A stretch of DNA of 51,206 nucleotides, from positions 1-51,206 of IMG/VR virus record IMGVR_UViG_3300008222_000010; one strand, 5' to 3'. Positions 5,591 through 33,316 of this stretch are shown one piece after another. The position numbers and the translations under genes are program-made. Origin of the DNA: a virus (lineage: Duplodnaviria > Caudoviricetes). Every line of letters begins with the position of its first letter. The stretch's first letter is position 1. The notes under the pieces are model-generated. The model worked only from the letters and a program-made list of their open reading frames with translations, was not told the origin of the DNA and ran no database searches.

Positions 5591-5618
5591 TTGACATAAT
5601 ATTGTGAGCTGTTAATAT
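5591..5618 (+). promoter_or_regulatory. sigma70-type early promoter
   Basis: TTGACA-16-TAATAT with AT-rich upstream, then AAGGAG RBS. Confidence 0.7.
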
Positions 5619-8950: not shown

Positions 8951-9144
8951 TGACTTTTCTCCTTAATCATTCTGACAATATCATCAAGCTCTTCTCTTTC
9001 CGAAACATGCTCAAGGATGAAGTTGGCTTTAGCTGTGATTATACTCCTTTCCAGCCAAGCGACCACTTCGCTACCACCCTCTGAGATATCGATTAATTGT
9101 TGTAGAGTGTCTACTTGTACGTCTAATGCTTCTAGCTTATTCAT
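8947..9144 (-). CDS. hypothetical protein
   Basis: 65 aa, ATGA-coupled, GAGGA RBS. Confidence 0.55.
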   Translation of the reverse strand: MNKLEALDVQVDTLQQLIDISEGGSEVVAWLERSIITAKANFILEHVSEREELDDIVRMIKEKSQ

Positions 9145-9284
9145 TTCTTGTCCTCTATTGATTTACAGATAAATGACACGGCGACAAACATATTGCTAAT
9201 CAAACCGAAATAGTCATCCACTGTGAGCGCGTACGGGACAAGCAACCCGGCAGCTATCAATAATGATGCCGCTGAACACTTCAT
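9141..9284 (-). CDS. small membrane protein (47 aa, not in the ORF track)
   Basis: MKCSAASLLIAAGLLVPYALTVDDYFGLISNMFVAVSFICKSIEDKK; ATGA overlaps at both ends. Confidence 0.6.
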   Translation of the reverse strand: MKCSAASLLIAAGLLVPYALTVDDYFGLISNMFVAVSFICKSIEDKK

Positions 9285-9481
9285 AGCTTAACCTCGGCAG
9301 TAACCGTGCAGTGAAAGCCCCAAGTCGACACCGGGGTTGGTTCAGCCATCAAATCAACCATTAGCGCGAAATCTGTTTCTATTTTAAAGTCGGTGGCGGT
9401 TAGCCCGGTGTCGTCATGAAATGCAGTCACCAACTGCTTAACATCATCCTCTAGCTTGGCTTTCTTTTCTTGTAGTGTCAT
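9281..9481 (-). CDS. hypothetical protein, first gene of an early cassette
   Basis: MTLQEKKAKL... after GGAGA RBS. Confidence 0.6.
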   Translation of the reverse strand: MTLQEKKAKLEDDVKQLVTAFHDDTGLTATDFKIETDFALMVDLMAEPTPVSTWGFHCTVTAEVKL

Positions 9482-9503
9482 ATTAATCTCCAATTAAAAA
9501 ACC

Positions 9504-9531
9504 AGCTTATCACGTCCGTGTGATATGTCAA
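9504..9531 (-). promoter_or_regulatory. sigma70-type early promoter
   Basis: TTGACA-16-TAAGCT with TG extension. Confidence 0.6.
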
Positions 9532-9981
9532 CTATTTAATTGGCTTATCCTGATTGCCACCGAATCTAGTTAATGCAACCTTGGCAATGCTACCCATATG
9601 CGGAGCCGCAAAATAGAATCCTAGTATCAACATCATGGCACCTGTCATTGATTGCGCATCGGCACTTATGACCGCAGCACTTGCCATTAGCTGTTCTGGA
9701 TTCTCGACCCATACGGCAGCTATCAATAAACCCTTAGCAATCAAGTATTGAATCAACCAGACAGCCGTAATCATAAGCGCAAGAAAGCGCCTAGCTAAAT
9801 TCTGACCCTTGGTTGACTCCATCCATCCGATAAGGAAGCTAGCGGCCTGAGCCTTCGCCTTGGCGCCATCCTCAGCCTTTTCTTCATCGGTATAGAATAA
9901 TTTATCAATACCATTGGTAACACCGCTCACAACGCCGTCAAGCGCCTTGTCGCTACCAAATAACCTACCCCAAAAACTCAT
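9532..9981 (-). CDS. putative holin (3TM / GTA-release holin-like)
   Basis: IDKLFYTDEEKA...RRFLALMI...ILGFYF pattern with two long hydrophobic segments. Confidence 0.6.
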   Translation of the reverse strand: MSFWGRLFGSDKALDGVVSGVTNGIDKLFYTDEEKAEDGAKAKAQAASFLIGWMESTKGQNLARRFLALMITAVWLIQYLIAKGLLIAAVWVENPEQLMASAAVISADAQSMTGAMMLILGFYFAAPHMGSIAKVALTRFGGNQDKPIK

Positions 9982-9985
9982 ATTA

Positions 9986-11287
9986 CTAACCCCACTGATT
10001 GAATGATGGTAAAACCGTTGCTGGTTTAATTAATGGATATTTCTTGGCGATAAAATAACCACACGCATCGATAGGATGGTCGGTGTCGCTTGTCTTGTCC
10101 GGCTCGCCATTTTTGTTATACGCTTGCTGCTCAAATGCTTCTACTGTTAATGGGCACTTATCAGGATTAACTAGATACCTACGTAACCCATCAGCATTGC
10201 AAAACATGGCGTTTACCGCGTTTATTCTATCCCTAACTCTAGGGTTTGATTTATCCACAACAACCCTGAACCCAGCATTACGAAGTAGTGTCAAGTCTGT
10301 CTCACTTGCATTAACAGACTTTCTGTTGTTGCCACTAGAATCTGGATAAACGTATATTTTAAACTTCTGAATATATCGACCTGTAGCGACGTCGTACTTC
10401 CAGTATTTGTCCTGAATTAGTCGTATCATTTCCGGTGTATCAAACGCACCCATTATCTCATCAACCGCATGAGCCTCACCGCCTCGCTGGACGTGTGTTA
10501 CCGCTGACATCTTACCAACGTTAAAATCCATACCTATATGCAGTACGTCGCTACCTTCGATTACTTCTGTAGACTTGTTTAGCTTGCGGTCAAACTGGTG
10601 ATACACGATACCGCTGGTCAGATTGGTAAATTCACCATTGATATACGCGTCAATGAGGTTTGATGGGTAAGTGGTGCGTAACGTATCGACGTAATCACTA
10701 GGCAAAAATGGATTAGACAGTGTGCTAGCCTGAATCATTTCATAACCAGCTTTGGGCGTCTTCTTCCAGTATTTGTATACGAACTTAAACCCTTCCGGCG
10801 TAGTGTAAACTGACACGCGGTTAAATGGATTGTCGATACCTTCCGGTGATTGTCTGTTACGCGCTATAATCTTTATCCACGCATCTAACGCCTTCTCTTC
10901 CTTGAGCGTATCCAATTCATCAACGTGCGCACGGTACGTTTGATAACCAATGATTCGAGCCGGATTATCTAGCGTACGTAAAATGAAATCACCCATCTGA
11001 CCGTTGCTGGTATAGATGATGTTCTCGGATTTGTTGTACTTGTAGCGAATGCCGTACTGCTGTAGTTTCTCCTCCATCCGTGGAGCCATGATTAAGCGCA
11101 CCAAATCATAAGTAGGCTCATACAGCCCGATAAGCGCGTTGGATGATGAGCACGCGTCCATGAAGGCTTGGTTAGCCATCGTCTCTGATTTACCTGTACC
11201 AAACCCGCCAACAAAAGCGGGGTGCTTACAGGTCAGCGCATGGAAGTCTGCTTGTGGCTGCGTAGGCCTTATCTTAACCGTTCGCAC
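9986..11287 (-). CDS. terL: terminase large subunit
   Basis: Walker A GGFGTGKS, Walker B AHVDELD, nuclease IGMDFN and DHPIDACGY. Confidence 0.93.
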   Translation of the reverse strand: MRTVKIRPTQPQADFHALTCKHPAFVGGFGTGKSETMANQAFMDACSSSNALIGLYEPTYDLVRLIMAPRMEEKLQQYGIRYKYNKSENIIYTSNGQMGDFILRTLDNPARIIGYQTYRAHVDELDTLKEEKALDAWIKIIARNRQSPEGIDNPFNRVSVYTTPEGFKFVYKYWKKTPKAGYEMIQASTLSNPFLPSDYVDTLRTTYPSNLIDAYINGEFTNLTSGIVYHQFDRKLNKSTEVIEGSDVLHIGMDFNVGKMSAVTHVQRGGEAHAVDEIMGAFDTPEMIRLIQDKYWKYDVATGRYIQKFKIYVYPDSSGNNRKSVNASETDLTLLRNAGFRVVVDKSNPRVRDRINAVNAMFCNADGLRRYLVNPDKCPLTVEAFEQQAYNKNGEPDKTSDTDHPIDACGYFIAKKYPLIKPATVLPSFNQWG

Positions 11288-19365: not shown

Positions 19366-19665
19366 TTATTTCAGCACTCGGCATTTTGACTTAAATATCG
19401 ACTTGTAGTATTCGCAACCAATGTATCTTGACTTTAACTTATGCGCCTTAATTAAGCTTACAATCCCGACCGTAGGAACTATAGCCAGATACAGCACTGG
19501 TACGTACGCCACTTTAATCAAGTCTAGCAAGCACCACCTTAGGGGGTTGAGGTTAACGTCAGGAAAACCAATAGACACCTCGTTAGCCCATAAATAATGA
19601 AGTCTCCACCTGTACGGCATGGTTTCGAATTCTTTTATATAAACATCTCTTGTTACTGTTTTCAT
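19366..19665 (-). CDS. hypothetical membrane protein
   Basis: 99 aa with one hydrophobic segment; ATGA coupling. Confidence 0.55.
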   Translation of the reverse strand: MKTVTRDVYIKEFETMPYRWRLHYLWANEVSIGFPDVNLNPLRWCLLDLIKVAYVPVLYLAIVPTVGIVSLIKAHKLKSRYIGCEYYKSIFKSKCRVLK

Positions 19666-20354
19666 TTCTTAGTCCACCATACGATTGCGTTGCCTTGGGT
19701 TAGGTATGGACGACAATCGTTAATTCTCACACCGCAATCCACTAGGCCATCACTAAGGCTAACTACGTAATCAACGCCCTTACGCAGCTCTTTGTCATCA
19801 TAATCGTCATCGGCACTAAACTGCTCAATATTAATCGTGTCGCCAACCTCGATGTTATTACGATTATCTTCTGTCACACGCACTCGCTCGGTAACAGCAG
19901 GAATTTGCTTTCCCTGTTGATATTCGCGCAACTCTTCGATAGATATTAGGCTGTCGCGCCATTGGTCTTGCGTTAGGGTTGGCATACGCACAAGTGACAA
20001 TAACGAATAGTCACCATGCTTGACGGTGAAATACTCTTCGCCATCGTGAATTTCTGGCTTGGCGGTGTACGCGTACCACACGCACTCGTCCTCATCATAA
20101 GACAACCACTTAACATCATCAGTAAAAATACCAGCGTCAGGCATATCATCAAGCCACGGGCGAGGGTTTACTTTTGATATGATGTTTAATTCAGGCCTGC
20201 CACCACAGTTTGAGCCATCGTTAAGATGTACGGATGGCAGACGCCCGTCAGCAGCAAACACATAATAAAACCCGTGCCTTGCTATTAACTCGGTCTCGTT
20301 ACCTTCACCATTCAAAAACCTATCACCAACTTCCGAACCTTTTAAATTAATCAT
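19662..20354 (-). CDS. mosaic two-module hypothetical protein
   Basis: start MINLKG after AAGGA; N-part resembles 17159..17650, C-part resembles 22634..23068. Confidence 0.7.
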   Translation of the reverse strand: MINLKGSEVGDRFLNGEGNETELIARHGFYYVFAADGRLPSVHLNDGSNCGGRPELNIISKVNPRPWLDDMPDAGIFTDDVKWLSYDEDECVWYAYTAKPEIHDGEEYFTVKHGDYSLLSLVRMPTLTQDQWRDSLISIEELREYQQGKQIPAVTERVRVTEDNRNNIEVGDTINIEQFSADDDYDDKELRKGVDYVVSLSDGLVDCGVRINDCRPYLTQGNAIVWWTKK

Positions 20355-20556
20355 TTTTATTTTCCTTTTTGTTAACGATAACGACATAGTACAGCCAGTA
20401 GTGGTATTCACTATCATCATCATCATTTAGATCGTCGCACTGCTTCGTCGCGTCATCAACATTGTCGTGAACGCGCACCGTTGTTATCTCGCCCATTTCG
20501 TACTCTGGCATGTTGACAGCCGCAACCTCGTACTCGTATTCGTTAATCATTGTCAT
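20347..20556 (-). CDS. small acidic protein
   Basis: 69 aa with CDDLNDDDDSEY. Confidence 0.55.
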   Translation of the reverse strand: MTMINEYEYEVAAVNMPEYEMGEITTVRVHDNVDDATKQCDDLNDDDDSEYHYWLYYVVIVNKKENKND

Positions 20557-20892: not shown

Positions 20893-20938
20893 GGTATTCC
20901 TTAATTAAAGCCCGCATTATTGCTTGCTTGATGTAGCC

Positions 20939-20967
20939 ATATTAATACGGCTTGGTTGTAGTGTCAA
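20939..20967 (-). promoter_or_regulatory. sigma70-type early promoter
   Basis: TTGACA-17-TAATAT; AGCCGTATT/AATATGGCT inverted repeat across the -10. Confidence 0.7.
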
Positions 20968-21233
20968 CACTTTATTTGATTAATATCAAAAAAGATTGCC
21001 AATCTCCTGTGACCGTTAGGTTCAACCAGCTCTATAAACTTCCCATCGCCAGACGCTTTTATTAAAGCGTTGTAGCACGATGAGTTAAATACCGGGGTGT
21101 TCGTAACCACATTTAAAAACACTCTATTATTATACAACTGTAGCCCACTAAAGCAATCACAAGGAGTAAGCTCAAAGCCAATCTGCTTTTTAATTTTCGA
21201 TATTACATTGCTTATAATTTCTGATTCTTTCAT
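20964..21233 (-). CDS. hypothetical protein (single-gene cassette)
   Basis: 89 aa between two promoters. Confidence 0.6.
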   Translation of the reverse strand: MKESEIISNVISKIKKQIGFELTPCDCFSGLQLYNNRVFLNVVTNTPVFNSSCYNALIKASGDGKFIELVEPNGHRRLAIFFDINQIKC

Positions 21234-21263
21234 GGGTTTATTCCGTTTCGTTTCAGTAGGCCT

Positions 21264-21292
21264 ATACTACCTAACCCCTAACTAAGTGTCAA
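21264..21292 (-). promoter_or_regulatory. sigma70-type early promoter
   Basis: AAATAAAGTG-TTGACA-17-TAGTAT. Confidence 0.75.
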
Positions 21293-21300
21293 CACTTTAT

Positions 21301-21477
21301 TTAATATTCTTCATTTATTTTTTCAATCATCTCTTCTAGCGTGTATTGCGACTCATTAATACGCATATCATCATCGCGCATTTCTTTAATTGCCGCGTCA
21401 ATTGCCCGGTTTAGGCGCTCTAGCTGTGCGTTCATCATGTTTCTAGCTATTAAAAGCTCTTTAAGTGCTACGCTCAT
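21301..21477 (-). CDS. small coiled-coil protein (58 aa, not in the ORF track)
   Basis: GAGGT RBS; MSVALKELLIARNMMNAQLERLNRAIDAAIKEMRDDD...EEY. Confidence 0.65.
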   Translation of the reverse strand: MSVALKELLIARNMMNAQLERLNRAIDAAIKEMRDDDMRINESQYTLEEMIEKINEEY

Positions 21478-21533
21478 ATTTACCTCGATTGGTTTACAAG
21501 TGGTTAAAAAATGTACTCAAAAGTTGTCAACGG

Positions 21534-21573
21534 AGACGTCTAGACGTCTAAACATCTAAACGTCCAGATGGCT
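21534..21573. promoter_or_regulatory. tandem array of five Met boxes (host MetJ operator-like)
   Basis: AGACGTCT AGACGTCT AAACATCT AAACGTCC AGATGGCT in exact 8-bp register; MetJ consensus is AGACGTCT; intergenic. Confidence 0.8.
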
Positions 21574-22099
21574 AATTGAGCGATAAATAGTCTAGCACTT
21601 CTTGCTTTGTTAGTGGTGTGTATCTATCGTATGGTGCGTGACCGCTGTATCTCATTAAGCATATATCACCATCACCACTGCGAACCAAACACGGATACTT
21701 AACCGTTACTGGGACTTGCATTTGTACATATTCGGTATCTCTTTTGTAATCATCAAGCTCATCACCATTTACCGCTTTCAATGGGAGATGCCCACGACTA
21801 AATAGCGTAACCTCAGCTAGCGCCTTACCGCTGTTCGCATGCCGATACCCAACAGCCTCACCCATGCGGTCAGCGTCAAATGGTATCCATTCTAGGTTTG
21901 TTGGTTGTTTGAGTTCGAATTTACCGACTAGGTAGCCGTAACCTGACCGATGCACGCCACCTTTGTCGTCAATAACACCAACCTCGCCATCTAGCGCTGA
22001 TATCTTGTAGCTACCATCTTTTGTGAAGCAGCTGCCTGACTCGCCAGCGAAAACAACAACATCCCCAACTTTCAAAGCCTTTGCTTGTTCAATATTCAT
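21572..22099 (-). CDS. hypothetical protein (SH3-like LKVGDVV N-terminus)
   Basis: 175 aa; TAATG coupling. Confidence 0.65.
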   Translation of the reverse strand: MNIEQAKALKVGDVVVFAGESGSCFTKDGSYKISALDGEVGVIDDKGGVHRSGYGYLVGKFELKQPTNLEWIPFDADRMGEAVGYRHANSGKALAEVTLFSRGHLPLKAVNGDELDDYKRDTEYVQMQVPVTVKYPCLVRSGDGDICLMRYSGHAPYDRYTPLTKQEVLDYLSLN

Positions 22100-22401
22100 T
22101 AAATCACCTTCGTATTGTTAATTGAATCTTTCAGCTCTTCGTTTTTAGCCTCAAGAAAATCTATTTCTTCGTTGATACCTTTGCGAATGAATGTCATCGC
22201 AAGCTTGTAGTGCGACTTGACTTCAGTTTGGTGGAAGGCTATTTCAACCTCCGCCTCGCCATTAGTTATGTGTAGTGACCTTTGGTTTCCGCCTAACGTG
22301 GTGCCGCGAAGGCTTTCAAGCGCTTCGATTCTTGACGAATTGCTACGTAGCTGGTCTAACATATCGGTGGTGCGCGCTAGTATTTGCTGGTTAGATTTCA
22401 T
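22099..22401 (-). CDS. hypothetical protein
   Basis: 100 aa, translationally coupled. Confidence 0.6.
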   Translation of the reverse strand: MKSNQQILARTTDMLDQLRSNSSRIEALESLRGTTLGGNQRSLHITNGEAEVEIAFHQTEVKSHYKLAMTFIRKGINEEIDFLEAKNEELKDSINNTKVI

Positions 22402-22637
22402 TATTCCGTTCCTTTCATTTGCGTTAAATCGCCAACGTTTTGCGAGCTAACCACTGTAAACTTGCCAACTAAATTAATTGATTTGAACTTCTTTTTGTTT
22501 GTTCTGCTAATCTTCATCTGAACCAGGTGTGAGTCGTCGGCATGGTTCACCACGGCAACATCGACCCAGTTAGACCACCAACTAAAACGGCCTATTTTTA
22601 CGTCATCCACGGTTAGTACATTTACCTTAGGCATCAC
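22401..22637 (-). CDS. hypothetical protein
   Basis: 78 aa; AGGAGG RBS. Confidence 0.6.
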   Translation of the reverse strand: MMPKVNVLTVDDVKIGRFSWWSNWVDVAVVNHADDSHLVQMKISRTNKKKFKSINLVGKFTVVSSQNVGDLTQMKGTE

Positions 22638-23068
22638 ACATCCTCCTTTTTAATCCACCAAACCACAGCGCCGTTAGTTGTTAGGTCTGGGCAGTACATA
22701 TCGCTACTCGCCGAAATGTGTATACAATCATCGTCACCGCTACCGTCATTGAGAGTAACTTCGTATAGCTCACCTATAGTTAGGTTGAGCTTATACTTGC
22801 GACCCTCATCACTGCTAAACGCCTCAATAACAATAAAATCACCTTTCGGTATTTCACTACGATTGTTCTCAGTAACTAGCGTTCGCACTGGCTCAATCAC
22901 AGTCGCTACAACAGGCTTTTTAGCCACGCCACCTACAGGATAACGCAACCGCTCAAGTGCTGCATCATTGATGCGTGTACGTGTTTCTGAGGCCGCGATA
23001 AGCTTATTTAATTTAATCCGTGCATCTTCTTCGGCTATGTTAGCCATCATTAATTGTTCAATCTTCAT
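22634..23068 (-). CDS. hypothetical protein sharing its C-terminal domain with 19662..20354
   Basis: VTENNR...GD.I.IE.FS.D...DC...P.LT...A.VWW.KK. Confidence 0.7.
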   Translation of the reverse strand: MKIEQLMMANIAEEDARIKLNKLIAASETRTRINDAALERLRYPVGGVAKKPVVATVIEPVRTLVTENNRSEIPKGDFIVIEAFSSDEGRKYKLNLTIGELYEVTLNDGSGDDDCIHISASSDMYCPDLTTNGAVVWWIKKEDV

Positions 23069-25021: not shown

Positions 25022-25049
25022 ATCATAACAGCCTGATATCGCATGTCAA
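25022..25049 (-). promoter_or_regulatory. strong early promoter driving the acrIF9 operon
   Basis: A/T UP tract, TTGACA-16-TATGAT with TG extension. Confidence 0.8.
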
Positions 25050-25119
25050 CAATTTATTTGATTAATCTATACATGTAATAAAAACGTGTATAGATAATGG
25101 GATTATGTGTGCATGTTGG

Positions 25120-25480
25120 TTGAAAAAGTCGTTAGCAGAGAATTCGGAGGGGCTACCGACTTTGCTACCGACTTTTCTTCTCTAAGTTATTGAATATATT
25201 ATATATATAGATATATATATATAGTTAATAGTTAATAGTTAATAGTTATCCTTCTTTTTTTTAAAAATACCTAAAAACAGACTATAAGTAAACTCTCTTT
25301 TAACTATTAAGTGTGTATATCTATATATGTATCTATACTACTGCTATCGACTTTTGACTTTCGACCAGCGGCTTTTGGCTTTTACTTCATAAGAATCAGT
25401 CACTTAAAAGTAAAACTCGCAAGTAAAGTCGTGCGTTATCGACTTTTCTCCTGCTATCGACTCCTGACTTTCGGTTAAAA
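25120..25480. other. putative replication origin
   Basis: multiple GCTA(C/T/A)CGACT iterons (25124, 25152, 25164, 25341, 25451) flanking an (AT)n tract and (TAGTTAA)x4 at 25222-25248; directly downstream of the primase gene. Confidence 0.75.
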
Positions 25481-25486
25481 AACGCA

Positions 25487-25510
25487 CAAAAAAGCCGCAA
25501 TTAAGCGGCT
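25487..25510 (-). terminator. intrinsic terminator after the primase gene
   Basis: AGCCGC-ttaatt-GCGGCT plus a T run. Confidence 0.75.
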
Positions 25511-25529
25511 AAGTGATATTGACTTGTAT

Positions 25530-27851
25530 TTAAGTTAGCATCCAGAGGATATGCTTCTTTTTGTTTCCAACTTTAGGAACTAGCACTTTAGTTGTAGTCC
25601 CTTTATTTTCTAACCAGTCGAGAGCTTTAGAAACATCCTCAGATTTGTAGCTTCTGCATCTGTTTTTAACTTGACCGTGTGGCATTCCCACTTTTTTATC
25701 GAGCATGGATTCGATTCTTGCGATTAAAGCGCCACCTTTATCGTTGTCTTCTTCTGCCATGTTCGACTTAGCGAGCCTTATTTTGCCGTCAATATCCTTT
25801 CTAACAAGAGCGTAAGCCCACGAAACATCATCAACGTGACGCGTTTTATCGTCATGCCCGATAGCTAGGACGAAGCTTATTTTAAGGACTAGCTCGAACC
25901 CTCGGCGTACAACCGCCTCTAACCCGGTAGCTCCTTTGTGGTGCTCTGCGTAATCAAAGAAGAAGTCTTGAATGTCATCTAGTGCCTTTGCAGCTTCCGA
26001 ACTTGTCTTGACGGGCGTCCTTTCCTGCCTAAACTCGATGCGTTTATCTGCTAGTGTGTCGGCGCAGCCACCGCCAGCTAATGATGAGATGCGCATTTTC
26101 AGAATATCGCTCATTGGCTTTTTCTTAAATCCTCGCTTAGCCCTAGGGTTGGTTTCCTTCTCTTCAAATACAAGAGAGCGACCAATAAACCCGTTGGTTG
26201 AGTTCTCGTAGCTCACTACGCTGTTGAACGTTACTGGGGTTGTGTAGCCTATCAGCGATAAGAATGGGCGCACTAGGCCGCCTGTCATTATCTCATTTGA
26301 AAGCTGTGTTAACTGTTCTGCCTTCTCTTCGTTGCGCTCGGGGTTGGTGTTTTCGCTTGCAAGTTTTCTAAAGTGCGCCGCTTGCTTGTTTAGCTCACCA
26401 ACTGATGATGACATTAAATCAGAACTAAGAAGCATTCTGTCGTCAGCTTTACTATACGCAGACATTAACGTCCCGATAACGCCCTCTAGATATGAAGCGC
26501 CACCCTTGGTACGTGCGTTTTCTATCTTTTGCAGGAATATACCAAGCTCATCCATAATGTAGAAGTTAGCTTGGTGAGCCAGTAGGCCGCGTACAATTTC
26601 CTGCTCAGATTTAATACCGCCCATAGTTGCTGCGCCAAATCCTGCTGCCATGTGTATCTTGGCTTGGGACTGCTGAATGGCCTCCTTACCTGTTGAAGAA
26701 CCTGCAACACATAATATGAACTGGTTTGCAGTCACGCCGTAATCTTCATCAAAATGCGTTAAGCCGCCGATATTACCAAGCGATGACAAGGCAGACGCTA
26801 CCGCTAATTGTTCACGTGGGAAACGAGAATTGCTATTGATGTATTCCACTAAATCACCAGCCAAGCCCGTACATTTTAGTAGGTCTACTTTATCTATGTT
26901 GACCGGATGGCCACGCCTAGCGGTTGGTTCTTCCACTACTTCACTTGATGGCATGACCTCATTTCCGGTCATTACTAAGTCTGTTACGAATGTTACGGAC
27001 TCCTTGTAACCTGCCTCCTCCGCTAAATGCTTTAACGTGCCAAATGTCACTGGGCTGCTAGACTTGCCGAAGCTGTGCCACTTTTGGTTGATCGCCTCAT
27101 GCCCGCAATAGTCTGTACCTTTGGCGCTCCAATCATCCCACAGTAAATCACCCTCACCGTTAGTAGCGTCATGAATAGCCATACCTATAGATACCCACTG
27201 CTCGTAGTCGCAATCGGGCGATATAAACTCAAGCATGGAGTTAATATCTTCGTTACTAACCTCTTGTGAGCAAGCAAAGTTATCACTACTCGGTGTACGC
27301 ACAGCTCTTGTTAAAAGCTCGATAAGTTCACTTGGCATATCGCCAATATCACTTGGGTGACCCTTTTCGGTCGAGTAAGTGCTTCCGCTCTTATGCATTG
27401 AGCCAGAGCCGACCACGAACCCGTTGTATTTAAAATCGATGCCCGGGTAGCTCTCAAGCTTACCAAGTAGGCGAACATCATCTGGCGCGTTGAAGTATAT
27501 GTGATGACCACCGCCACCAGTGGCAACAACGAACTCCGATGCGTCCTTGTAATCTATGCCTGTGTCCTTACACATTTTAACGTAGCTTGCATCACCACCG
27601 TTTCTAGGGTCGATATCTATAATAAGTAGGCCATCGACAATTACGCCGAAGCCAGTCTTGAATTGACCTGTCATTTCCATGACATCAAGCTGATCATCTG
27701 TCCATGCTGGTGTGTGCTGCCAGCTACTAACGCGGGGGTGCTTATATAGCGCTTCACATTCCACGTTGCCACACTCACAATTGCCGTTGGCATCAACACC
27801 ATTTAAACCAAATACCTTTACATCTGCCTCTACATAATTCCATACCGACAT
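25530..27851 (-). CDS. bifunctional primase-polymerase (Prim-Pol + PriCT-2 + helicase-like domain)
   Basis: CECG..C...KHP, IIDIDPRNGG, TGGGGHHIYF, YEQWVSIGMAIH..WDDWS, AGSSTGKE, MDELG. Confidence 0.9.
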   Translation of the reverse strand: MSVWNYVEADVKVFGLNGVDANGNCECGNVECEALYKHPRVSSWQHTPAWTDDQLDVMEMTGQFKTGFGVIVDGLLIIDIDPRNGGDASYVKMCKDTGIDYKDASEFVVATGGGGHHIYFNAPDDVRLLGKLESYPGIDFKYNGFVVGSGSMHKSGSTYSTEKGHPSDIGDMPSELIELLTRAVRTPSSDNFACSQEVSNEDINSMLEFISPDCDYEQWVSIGMAIHDATNGEGDLLWDDWSAKGTDYCGHEAINQKWHSFGKSSSPVTFGTLKHLAEEAGYKESVTFVTDLVMTGNEVMPSSEVVEEPTARRGHPVNIDKVDLLKCTGLAGDLVEYINSNSRFPREQLAVASALSSLGNIGGLTHFDEDYGVTANQFILCVAGSSTGKEAIQQSQAKIHMAAGFGAATMGGIKSEQEIVRGLLAHQANFYIMDELGIFLQKIENARTKGGASYLEGVIGTLMSAYSKADDRMLLSSDLMSSSVGELNKQAAHFRKLASENTNPERNEEKAEQLTQLSNEIMTGGLVRPFLSLIGYTTPVTFNSVVSYENSTNGFIGRSLVFEEKETNPRAKRGFKKKPMSDILKMRISSLAGGGCADTLADKRIEFRQERTPVKTSSEAAKALDDIQDFFFDYAEHHKGATGLEAVVRRGFELVLKISFVLAIGHDDKTRHVDDVSWAYALVRKDIDGKIRLAKSNMAEEDNDKGGALIARIESMLDKKVGMPHGQVKNRCRSYKSEDVSKALDWLENKGTTTKVLVPKVGNKKKHILWMLT

Positions 27852-32825: not shown

Positions 32826-33316
32826 ATTTATTTCAAATGAACCACCAGCAGCGAGAATTACTATCAGTTATCGAAAACGGTGAATTATCACCAGAGGACG
32901 CGGCTGACACATTGGACGCAATGGACTATGATTTTGACAAAAAGGTCGAAGACATATGCCACGTGCTACGTGACTTAACATCGAGAGAGCAGTCGATAAA
33001 GAATGAAATGGAAAGACTGACCAGTCTCAAGTCGTCAGTGTCTAATAATATTATTCGACTTAAAGAGTACGCGCTACAAGGTATGATATCCAGTGGGAAG
33101 ACGTCTATAAAGTCAGACCTGTTTAACGTGTCATTAAGAAAAGGTCGTCAAGTTGTTGATGTTAAATGCCATGAAAGCATACCTGACGAGTACGTTAGAA
33201 TTACGCCAGCAACAGAATCACCGGACAAGGCAAAGATACTAAAAGCCCTGAAAAGCGGTGAAAAAGTAGACGGGTGCGCAATCACTACAGGTAAGCAATC
33301 ACTAAACATAAAATAA
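32822..33316 (+). CDS. siphovirus Gp157-family protein
   Basis: ADTLDAM...K......EMERL...IPDEY.....PDKAKI.KALKSGE.V.G...SL.IK. Confidence 0.85.
   Translation: MNLFQMNHQQRELLSVIENGELSPEDAADTLDAMDYDFDKKVEDICHVLRDLTSREQSIKNEMERLTSLKSSVSNNIIRLKEYALQGMISSGKTSIKSDLFNVSLRKGRQVVDVKCHESIPDEYVRITPATESPDKAKILKALKSGEKVDGCAITTGKQSLNIK

Follow-up and report, generated by a model that had tools for sequence, protein, structure and literature searches.

The virus record IMGVR_UViG_3300008222_000010 is a complete IMG/VR genome of 51,206 bp from a tailed phage of marine type, and this whole stretch of DNA is referred to below as the window. Terminase, portal, capsid, tape-measure, primase and helicase genes were found in the window, and its G+C content is 40-48%. 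Between two small open reading frames (ORFs), at positions 21534-21573, lies a tandem array of five 8-bp boxes that resemble the operators of MetJ, the host methionine repressor, whose co-repressor is S-adenosylmethionine (SAM). On the plus strand the array reads AGACGTCT AGACGTCT AAACATCT AAACGTCC AGATGGCT, in exact 8-bp register and free of gaps, with the following boxes and matrix scores:

21534-41, Met box 1, AGACGTCT, 12.6 bits
21542-49, Met box 2, AGACGTCT, 12.6 bits
21550-57, Met box 3, AAACATCT, 9.3 bits
21558-65, Met box 4, AAACGTCC, 8.5 bits
21566-73, Met box 5, AGATGGCT, 8.1 bits

For scoring, the MetJ half-box bit matrix published by Augustus and Spicer (PMC3228920, Table 3) was used together with their rules for accepting a site, under which a box needs no less than one quarter of the consensus bits and a complete site no less than their full number (threshold 12.58). 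The array reached a total of 51.1 bits against this threshold of 12.58 and was the sole site accepted by the matrix scan in the whole 51,206-bp window. It matches the consensus at 34 of 40 bases, compared with 23 of 40 for the runner-up five-box stretch of the window, and Tandem Repeats Finder independently reported 21534-21568 with a period of 8 and the consensus AGACGTCT. The five in-register boxes of the preliminary description of this DNA were therefore borne out by the sequence itself, by the matrix and by the repeat finder. When 200 first-order Markov random windows were scanned, a mean of 0.8 accepted sites was obtained, the top total was 19.6 bits and the longest run was three boxes; on these sequence statistics, a chance origin of the array is excluded, and an arbitrary 8-mer tandem duplication is not expected to match the MetJ consensus. 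Natural MetJ operators have 2-5 boxes. The imperfect boxes 3-5 vary only where natural boxes vary, according to the matrix (PMC3228920, available in part), the deviations being A at position 2, A at position 5/T at position 4, C at position 8 and G at position 6. Both sequence features of a MetJ operator were found in the array, namely at least two adjacent in-register AGACGTCT-like boxes and acceptance by the matrix rules. Tight binding is expected because the array has two perfect boxes and 51 bits. The third AGACGTCT of the window, at 33099, is a single box within a coding region.

All genes around the array lie on the minus strand, and the array fills the 94-bp spacer between an ORF of 175 amino acids (aa) and an ORF of 58 aa, within an operon. 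The features of this region are as follows:

21534..21573, no strand, five-box Met array
21523..21531, minus strand, 9-mer GTTGACAAC, 2 nt from box 1
21301..21477, minus strand, 58-aa ORF, the first gene downstream of the array, with a GAGGT Shine-Dalgarno sequence at plus-strand positions 21482-21486
21572..22099, minus strand, 175-aa ORF, upstream of the array, its TAG stop codon (21572-21574) overlapping box 5
21264..21292, minus strand, promoter-like TTGACA-17-TAGTAT with an upstream AAATAAAGTG, 9 nt past the stop codon of the 58-aa ORF
25022..25049, minus strand, promoter-like TTGACA-16-TATGAT with TG, the nearest strong site upstream of the array

The ATG of the 58-aa ORF lies 56 nt from the array and 45 nt beyond GTTGACAAC. 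This 9-mer includes a perfect -35-like TTGACA (21530-21525), and the hexamer is 3 nt from box 1. The geometry given earlier (boxes, then GTTGACA with a poor -10) was retained with one correction: the distance of 3 nt applies to TTGACA, and the 9-mer starts 2 nt from box 1. A promoter scan downstream of GTTGACAAC in the window gave no passing -10, and the best -10 after the TTGACA of the array, read by eye, was TTTAAC at a spacing of 16 bp. The strong promoter-like sites of the phage share AAATAAAGTG-TTGACA-16/17-TAnnAT, and at the TTGACA of the array the Met boxes take the place of the A/T-rich upstream part seen in the other promoter-like sites. No minus-strand terminator-like site was called between the 25049 promoter and the array, and therefore read-through transcripts should reach the array. 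The promoter at 21292-21264 would restart transcription of the following genes. Judged from this layout, the array lies within a transcription unit and a bound protein would be able to affect only the 58-aa ORF, because a strong promoter directly follows the ORF in the window and in two related contigs (L002 and L032) that are described next.

When IMG/VR was scanned for exact matches to a pair of perfect boxes, four other contigs were obtained. L002 carries six in-register 8-mers (five of which pass the matrix), GTTGACAAC and a homologous small ORF with 65% identity to the 58-aa ORF over a 23-aa core. It is a syntenic distant relative of the window phage (head-morphogenesis protein, 71% aa identity; early proteins, ~29-46%), and its homologue of the 175-aa ORF (29% identity) is found on the opposite side of the small ORF; to judge from this gene order, the neighbourhood in L002 is rearranged while the array-plus-ORF unit stayed together. 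L003, L004 and L005 have two perfect boxes each, which by a rough estimate is about the chance level for that collection. When the back-translated core motif of the small ORF was used for scanning, two further phages, L031 and L032, were obtained. L031 has five boxes (45.6 bits), GTTGACAAC and a homologue of the small ORF. In L032, two CGTCAAAA(A/T)GTTGAC palindromes were found on the reverse strand where the relatives have boxes, ~110 nt upstream of the small ORF, and the second of them takes in the conserved GTTGACAAC; these palindromes may represent an operator swap, with an operator of a different regulator. Two metagenome contigs from the motif scan, L033 and L034, were copies of the L002 sequence and were excluded from the independent loci. 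A search for homologous loci by protein alignments gave the L002 contig only, the metagenome contigs giving none. In these distantly related uncultured phages, the array with GTTGACAAC stands before a homologous gene of ~55 aa at three of four independent loci (the window, L002 and L031; not L032). L002, L031 and L032 all have an identical GTTGACAAC after the boxes or after what takes their place. A TTGACG-17 promoter follows the homologous ORF in L002 and L032. Between L002 and L031 the flanks are near-identical, but the count and the sequence of the boxes are not the same, and yet the matrix accepts the majority of these boxes. This box turnover fits selection for binding, and by these sequence comparisons the array is under selection.

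No close DNA relative of the window was found in the phage collection by megablast or blastn. Pseudoalteromonas phage H103 and Vibrio phage pYD21-A share 47% identity with it in the primase, and siphophages of Salmonella, E. coli and Hafnia share 56-61% in the large terminase. The orders that bear MetJ include Enterobacterales, Vibrionales and Alteromonadales (PMC3228920, available in part), and all hosts of these nearest cultured relatives fall in MetJ-bearing orders of that source. The absence of recognised methionine or SAM genes, as claimed at the outset, held within the searches made: no such gene turned up when 50 of the 82 candidate ORFs with 60 aa or more were scanned (Pfam or PHROGs), no phage-encoded MetJ was found by a six-frame search at E<=10, and a search for Rfam families, SAM riboswitches included, gave none in the window. 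Most early ORFs of the phage matched no known family. The 175-aa ORF had no Pfam family and no relatives in viral contigs.

The 58-aa ORF likewise had no Pfam family. A profile search against 1.8 billion representative proteins gave P0001 (the ORF product itself), P0002 and P0003, none of them named; two long coiled-coil proteins in the same search were treated as composition matches. A word-indexed protein search returned only the protein itself, and a protein atlas gave unnamed clusters only, with scores of at most 0.78. The protein was modelled by AlphaFold2 as a single long helix over residues 3-57, with a predicted local distance difference test (pLDDT) score of 86.

BLAST surveys for similar arrays were carried out on 50,697 phage records; such surveys recover only arrays that resemble the queries. 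The 55-bp array region of the window matched 14 records from 8 phages, with Providencia, Vibrio, Aeromonas or E. coli as hosts. The 72-bp array of the Providencia phage PR1 matched 68 records, whose hosts were Vibrio (16), Escherichia (13), Klebsiella (11), Erwinia (6), Providencia, Aeromonas, Pseudoalteromonas and Yersinia (4 each), Pectobacterium and Serratia (2 each), and Salmonella and Xanthomonas (1 each). In 67 of the 68 records the host falls in a MetJ-bearing order, a count that stands without the baseline host share of the collection. Arrays of the same consensus, with 3-16 boxes, were found in at least eight unrelated phage groups, including T5-like, jumbo and T7-like phages. One consensus across unrelated groups, MetJ-bearing hosts and the lack of a phage MetJ in the search above point to a shared factor that is encoded by the host. 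The matrix check covered 16 fetched phage loci, not every BLAST match, and all 16 carried an array of at least 20 bits. The arrays were as follows:

Window, 5 boxes; L002, 5 passing boxes (6 in register); L031, 5 boxes
pYD21-A (Vibrio phage), two 3-box sites
Ceto, 10 boxes
AhSzw-1, 16 boxes
PR1, 9 boxes
PSTCR5, 9 boxes
CarlMeissner (E. coli K-12 phage), 4 boxes
NNA-G4 (Klebsiella phage, Drulisvirus), 5 boxes
PGT2 (E. coli phage, Ermolevavirus), 9 boxes
XbC2, array confirmed by the matrix, 8 + 4 boxes (L020, record ~650-770)
121Q, JSF10, HP1 and PH1, array confirmed by the matrix

Whole-record pattern scans showed one array place per genome or per terminal repeat, and the reversed pattern gave 0-1 matches. 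Ceto and PR1 have one array per terminal repeat and AhSzw-1 has a single array. The array positions in other phages are nearly always in unannotated DNA, mostly close to genome termini. In the T5-like phages, which infect Providencia, Vibrio and Aeromonas, the arrays lie inside terminal repeats beside DnaA-box and LexA-box-like motifs. The array regions are located at 1500-1700 in PR1 (L010), 1469-1700 in PSTCR5 (L011), 385-620 in Ceto (L008) and 1492-1800 in AhSzw-1 (L009), and in these four phages the arrays are ~60-110 bp from TTATCCACA sequences, which we take to be DnaA boxes, and from CTGT-N8-ACAG palindromes, presumably LexA-like boxes. The non-coding region of the T5-like terminal repeat looks, from these motifs, like a cluster of host-regulator sites. 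In T5 itself, no array was found in the injection-stop region (9000-11000), where the best score was 13.4 bits. Among T7-like phages, arrays within ~110 bp of a genome end were found in Drulisvirus NNA-G4 (L016 500-539, corresponding to record 1-40) and in Ermolevavirus PGT2 (L017 483-554; physical left end). In the jumbo phages CBB, BF, XbC2 and Erwinia SNUABM, the arrays are ~700 bp from the end; for CBB, BF, fHe-Yen9-04 and Erwinia SNUABM they were placed ~50-800 bp from the record start, often within annotated terminal repeats. The 3-box sites of pYD21-A are in two paralogous origin-like regions, ~65-100 bp upstream of a promoter. The two pYD21-A regions (L014, 1050-1700 and 39000-39460) have the same layout and look like duplicated origin/control regions, with TGATCA-type repeats, AGATA repeats, a purine tract and an AT-rich stretch, followed by three Met boxes, more GTGATCATAAGT repeats and a TTGAC-17-TAAAGT promoter.

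When the 284 phage half-boxes were symmetrised, their base frequencies tracked the host matrix at all four positions, a comparison that is biased, the boxes having been picked with the matrix. C at position 3 was found in ~10% of host half-boxes and 20% of phage half-boxes. XbC2, recorded on Xanthomonas vesicatoria, was the sole phage among the BLAST matches from a genus not known for MetJ, and its arrays occupy the position seen in related phages of Pectobacterium, Erwinia and Serratia. On the host side, the 24-mer of the first three boxes was found in four Lysobacterales metagenome-assembled genomes (MAGs), upstream of a metY/metB-like gene. These Lysobacterales operators (L023-L026) have 3-7 boxes between the promoter and the metY/metB-like gene. 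MetJ is encoded in all four of these MAGs and, within one of the families they belong to, in 25 of 27 genomes (G002-G028). The regulon papers of 2011 (PMC3228920) and 2014, in their available parts, give five or six other gammaproteobacterial groups as the sole carriers of MetJ; the range of MetJ extends beyond the five orders listed in 2011. A Lysobacterales MetJ may explain the Xanthomonas exception of XbC2. No BLAST match at E<=10 was obtained between E. coli genomes and the 55-bp array query. Two other origins of the boxes were considered and rejected. For a captured host met promoter, the flanks matched nothing, and the 24-mer was found only in the high-GC Lysobacterales operators; for a TrpR-type CTAG operator, the flanking bases differ from those of the TrpR consensus.

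Several further features of the window were recorded. A family of near-consensus sigma-70-like promoters was found at 5591(+), 36941(+), 25049(-), 21292(-), 20967(-) and 12335(-); they share an upstream AAATAAAGTG-type element, and several also have a downstream GAAACGA. A 480-bp non-coding stretch (25050-25530) after the primase terminator, free of Met boxes, probably serves as the origin of replication; it contains AAAGTCGATAGCAG-type repeats, four copies of ATAGTTA, (AT)15 and two copies of GCTACCGACTTT, the origin-like repeats and the (AT)n tract lying at ~25150-25365. Two early minus-strand ORFs, 19662-20426 (254 aa) and 22634-23068 (144 aa), have similar C-termini (...GNAIVWWTKK and ...NGAVVWWIKKEDV) and, by this likeness, may be paralogues of one family; no Pfam family matched either of them.

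From the sequence, statistics, conservation and recurrence of the array, we infer that it would be bound by MetJ, which is considered very probable, and with the same high confidence the binding protein is predicted to be host MetJ charged with SAM. The proposal that a phage carries a host MetJ operator is supported at this level by the score, the tolerated substitutions, the conservation and the recurrence. Roughly an even chance is given to the reading that host MetJ, when charged with SAM, occupies the array and reduces transcription into the 58-aa ORF. In this operator reading, up to five MetJ-SAM dimers would line up along the 40 bp of the array between the 175-aa and 58-aa genes, and high SAM would lead to an occupied array and less transcription into the 58-aa gene. 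MetJ might cover the upstream-element/-35 zone of a weak local promoter, or it might block RNA polymerase reading through from the 25049 promoter. A drop in SAM, or replicating phage genomes that outnumber MetJ, would switch the 58-aa gene on, and the strong promoter right after this gene would keep the other early genes independent of MetJ. A cis-regulatory operator is favoured because of the short spacer, the fixed partner gene, the swap in L032 and the promoter directly after the gene. The distance of 56 nt from array to start codon was also counted for an operator, the mean distance of host Met operators to the start codon being ~75 nt (PMC3228920, available in part). Of the SAM sensor or roadblock proposed earlier, the anatomy fits the part that concerns the 58-aa gene, but the downstream early genes would not be gated, the promoter at 21292-21264 restarting their transcription.

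Several observations weigh against this operator reading. The local promoter before the 58-aa ORF is putative, with no passing -10, and the TTGACA of GTTGACAAC is only 13 nt from the ATG in L002, L031 and L032; at this short distance, TTGACA cannot be the -35 of the small gene in these relatives. The claim that GTTGACA serves as a -35 was accordingly kept for the perfect hexamer and is in doubt for its function. MetJ as an elongation roadblock is not documented in the literature covered, and the spacer RNA can form a 14-bp hairpin. L032 has GTTGACAAC and a small ORF cut to 45 aa, the gene being kept without boxes, and in phage H103, which among cultured phages is nearest to the window by primase, the best site is a weak one of 14.0 bits. 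The 58-aa ORF does not belong to the met regulon by function, no tie to methionine or SAM metabolism having been found. Finally, the arrays of other phages have 9-16 boxes, or are separated by 65-100 bp or more from any promoter, at genome ends or in origin-like DNA; gene repression is therefore not their general function, and in the window too the function may be other than gene repression.

These last observations lead to an alternative in which the array recruits MetJ-SAM to play a structural or signalling role on the phage chromosome, be it at the start of replication, during DNA entry, in protecting the ends or in packaging, and its link to the small ORF is mere co-inheritance. The arrays of other phages exceed host sites (2-7 boxes; 3-7 in the four retrieved operators) and lie in long unannotated non-coding DNA: 9-16 boxes near DnaA-box and LexA-box-like motifs in Ceto, PR1, PSTCR5 and AhSzw-1, arrays near the genome ends in NNA-G4, PGT2 and the jumbo phages, and 3-box sites in origin-like regions in pYD21-A. 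In the window, however, the array is in a 94-bp intra-operon spacer, and the origin-like repeats at ~25050-25530 have no Met box; in an iteron test, the array was not beside an AT-rich unwinding region or replication genes but in a spacer between two small ORFs. The fixed place before one gene at three of four loci and the swap in L032 fit a cis-regulatory site, and a chromosome element is considered unlikely for the window. The preliminary description had also proposed a decoy, whereby replicated arrays soak up MetJ, derepress the met regulon (metK included) and raise methionine and SAM. An array of 51 bits with two perfect boxes is expected to bind tightly, the boxes added by ~100 genome copies would number in the hundreds (simple arithmetic on an assumed copy number), and no methionine or SAM gene of the phage's own was found among the ORFs scanned. 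A decoy needs no fixed neighbour, yet the array precedes the same gene at three of four loci, and there is one array only per genome. Met boxes at metK are scarce, being known from a handful of Vibrionales and Alteromonadales only and from no Aeromonadales in the available part of PMC3228920, yet phages of Aeromonas and Vibrio have the longest arrays. T5 breaks down host DNA early (10.64898/2026.04.02.716235, available in part), which, extrapolated from T5 to the array-bearing T5-like phages, would leave nothing to derepress. With its fixed place, the scarce metK boxes and this degradation, a decoy is the weaker of the two earlier proposals, and we regard it as quite improbable.

That the boxes are bound by a protein other than MetJ, either a phage repeat binder of the ribbon-helix-helix or another type or another host factor, with a partial or convergent likeness to Met boxes, is also held to be very unlikely. 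Many boxes in other phages are AGCCATCT or AGCCGTCT, the frequency of C at position 3 differs as noted (~10% host vs 20% phage), XbC2 was recorded on Xanthomonas vesicatoria, and most early ORFs lack a known family. Against this, no MetJ-like phage protein was found at E<=10, one phage-encoded specificity is not expected across unrelated families, the 284 half-boxes track the host matrix at all four positions (with the bias of matrix picking), and, with MetJ in some Lysobacterales, XbC2 is maybe no exception. An RNA element, in which the tandem palindromes fold in the read-through transcript as a processing site, stabiliser or attenuator, appears scarcely credible. The minus-strand RNA of 21478-21590 can form the 14-bp stem at -26.4 kcal/mol (z = -2.77; equalled by 1 of 200 shuffles), but any tandem palindrome folds so, and the hairpin is an automatic by-product. 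No terminator-like site was found in 20900-22200; there is no U-tract after the stem, the nearest U-run beginning 11 nt past it, and there was no Rfam match. An RNA element would also leave the MetJ consensus unit and the arrays at untranscribed genome ends elsewhere unexplained.

The array of the window resembles the chromosomal MetJ operators (metA, metB/J, metC, metE, metF and metY) in its tandem in-register AGACGTCT-type boxes, at least two of them adjacent, in its place shortly upstream of a start codon and in its acceptance by the matrix. It differs from them in that it is in a phage, before a gene with no methionine or SAM link, and has two perfect adjacent boxes. Sites for host transcription factors, among them LexA, DnaA and IHF, occur in phage DNA. 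Cyanophages use host PhoB sites: S-PM2d has Pho boxes, and host PhoBR controls pstS in P-SSM2. Gel shifts have shown that PhoB binds phage DNA, and predicted boxes often fail to bind (PMC10976474, available in part). As with the cyanophage Pho boxes, a predicted site of a host metabolic regulator is found in a putative phage promoter region, by which phage genes would follow the nutrient state; unlike them, the array concerns MetJ and SAM, is a five-box cooperative array rather than a single Pho box, and is known here from the sequence alone. For the injection-stop region of T5-like phages, DnaA-box clusters in conserved non-coding DNA have been described, and the available part of that report never mentions MetJ or methionine (10.1101/866236). 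The likeness to these clusters is that sites of host DNA-binding proteins are gathered in conserved non-coding phage DNA; the differences are that the window array lies outside such a region and that T5's own region has no array. No description of Met boxes in phage genomes was found in the literature, the supplementary site lists of the regulon papers being outside its coverage, and no report was found of a phage sensing MetJ and SAM through cis-DNA alone. As far as the literature was searched, MetJ/SAM as a borrowed regulator is new, as are tandem arrays of up to 16 boxes.

Taken across the phages surveyed, slightly less than an even chance is given to a wider reading, in which phages of MetJ-bearing gammaproteobacteria have repeatedly evolved arrays of 3-16 boxes in non-coding control DNA that use MetJ-SAM as a borrowed sensor or architectural protein. 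Such arrays would be sited in early-gene spacers, in origin-like regions, at the T5-type first-step-transfer end and at extreme termini, with the window array as a small operator-like member. The survey suggests that the same or a related trick, with longer arrays, is present in cultured phages, including CarlMeissner of E. coli K-12, and scans with host-regulator matrices can decode terminal arrays that usually carry just the label 'repeat region' or no annotation at all. DNA methylation takes its methyl groups from SAM, which also mirrors the methionine supply and is a cofactor of several restriction systems. If the operator reading is true, the phage could time a gene to the metabolic or defence state of its host via MetJ, without a sensor of its own; in the wider reading, SAM status would be a general input to phage development that is invisible to gene-based annotation.

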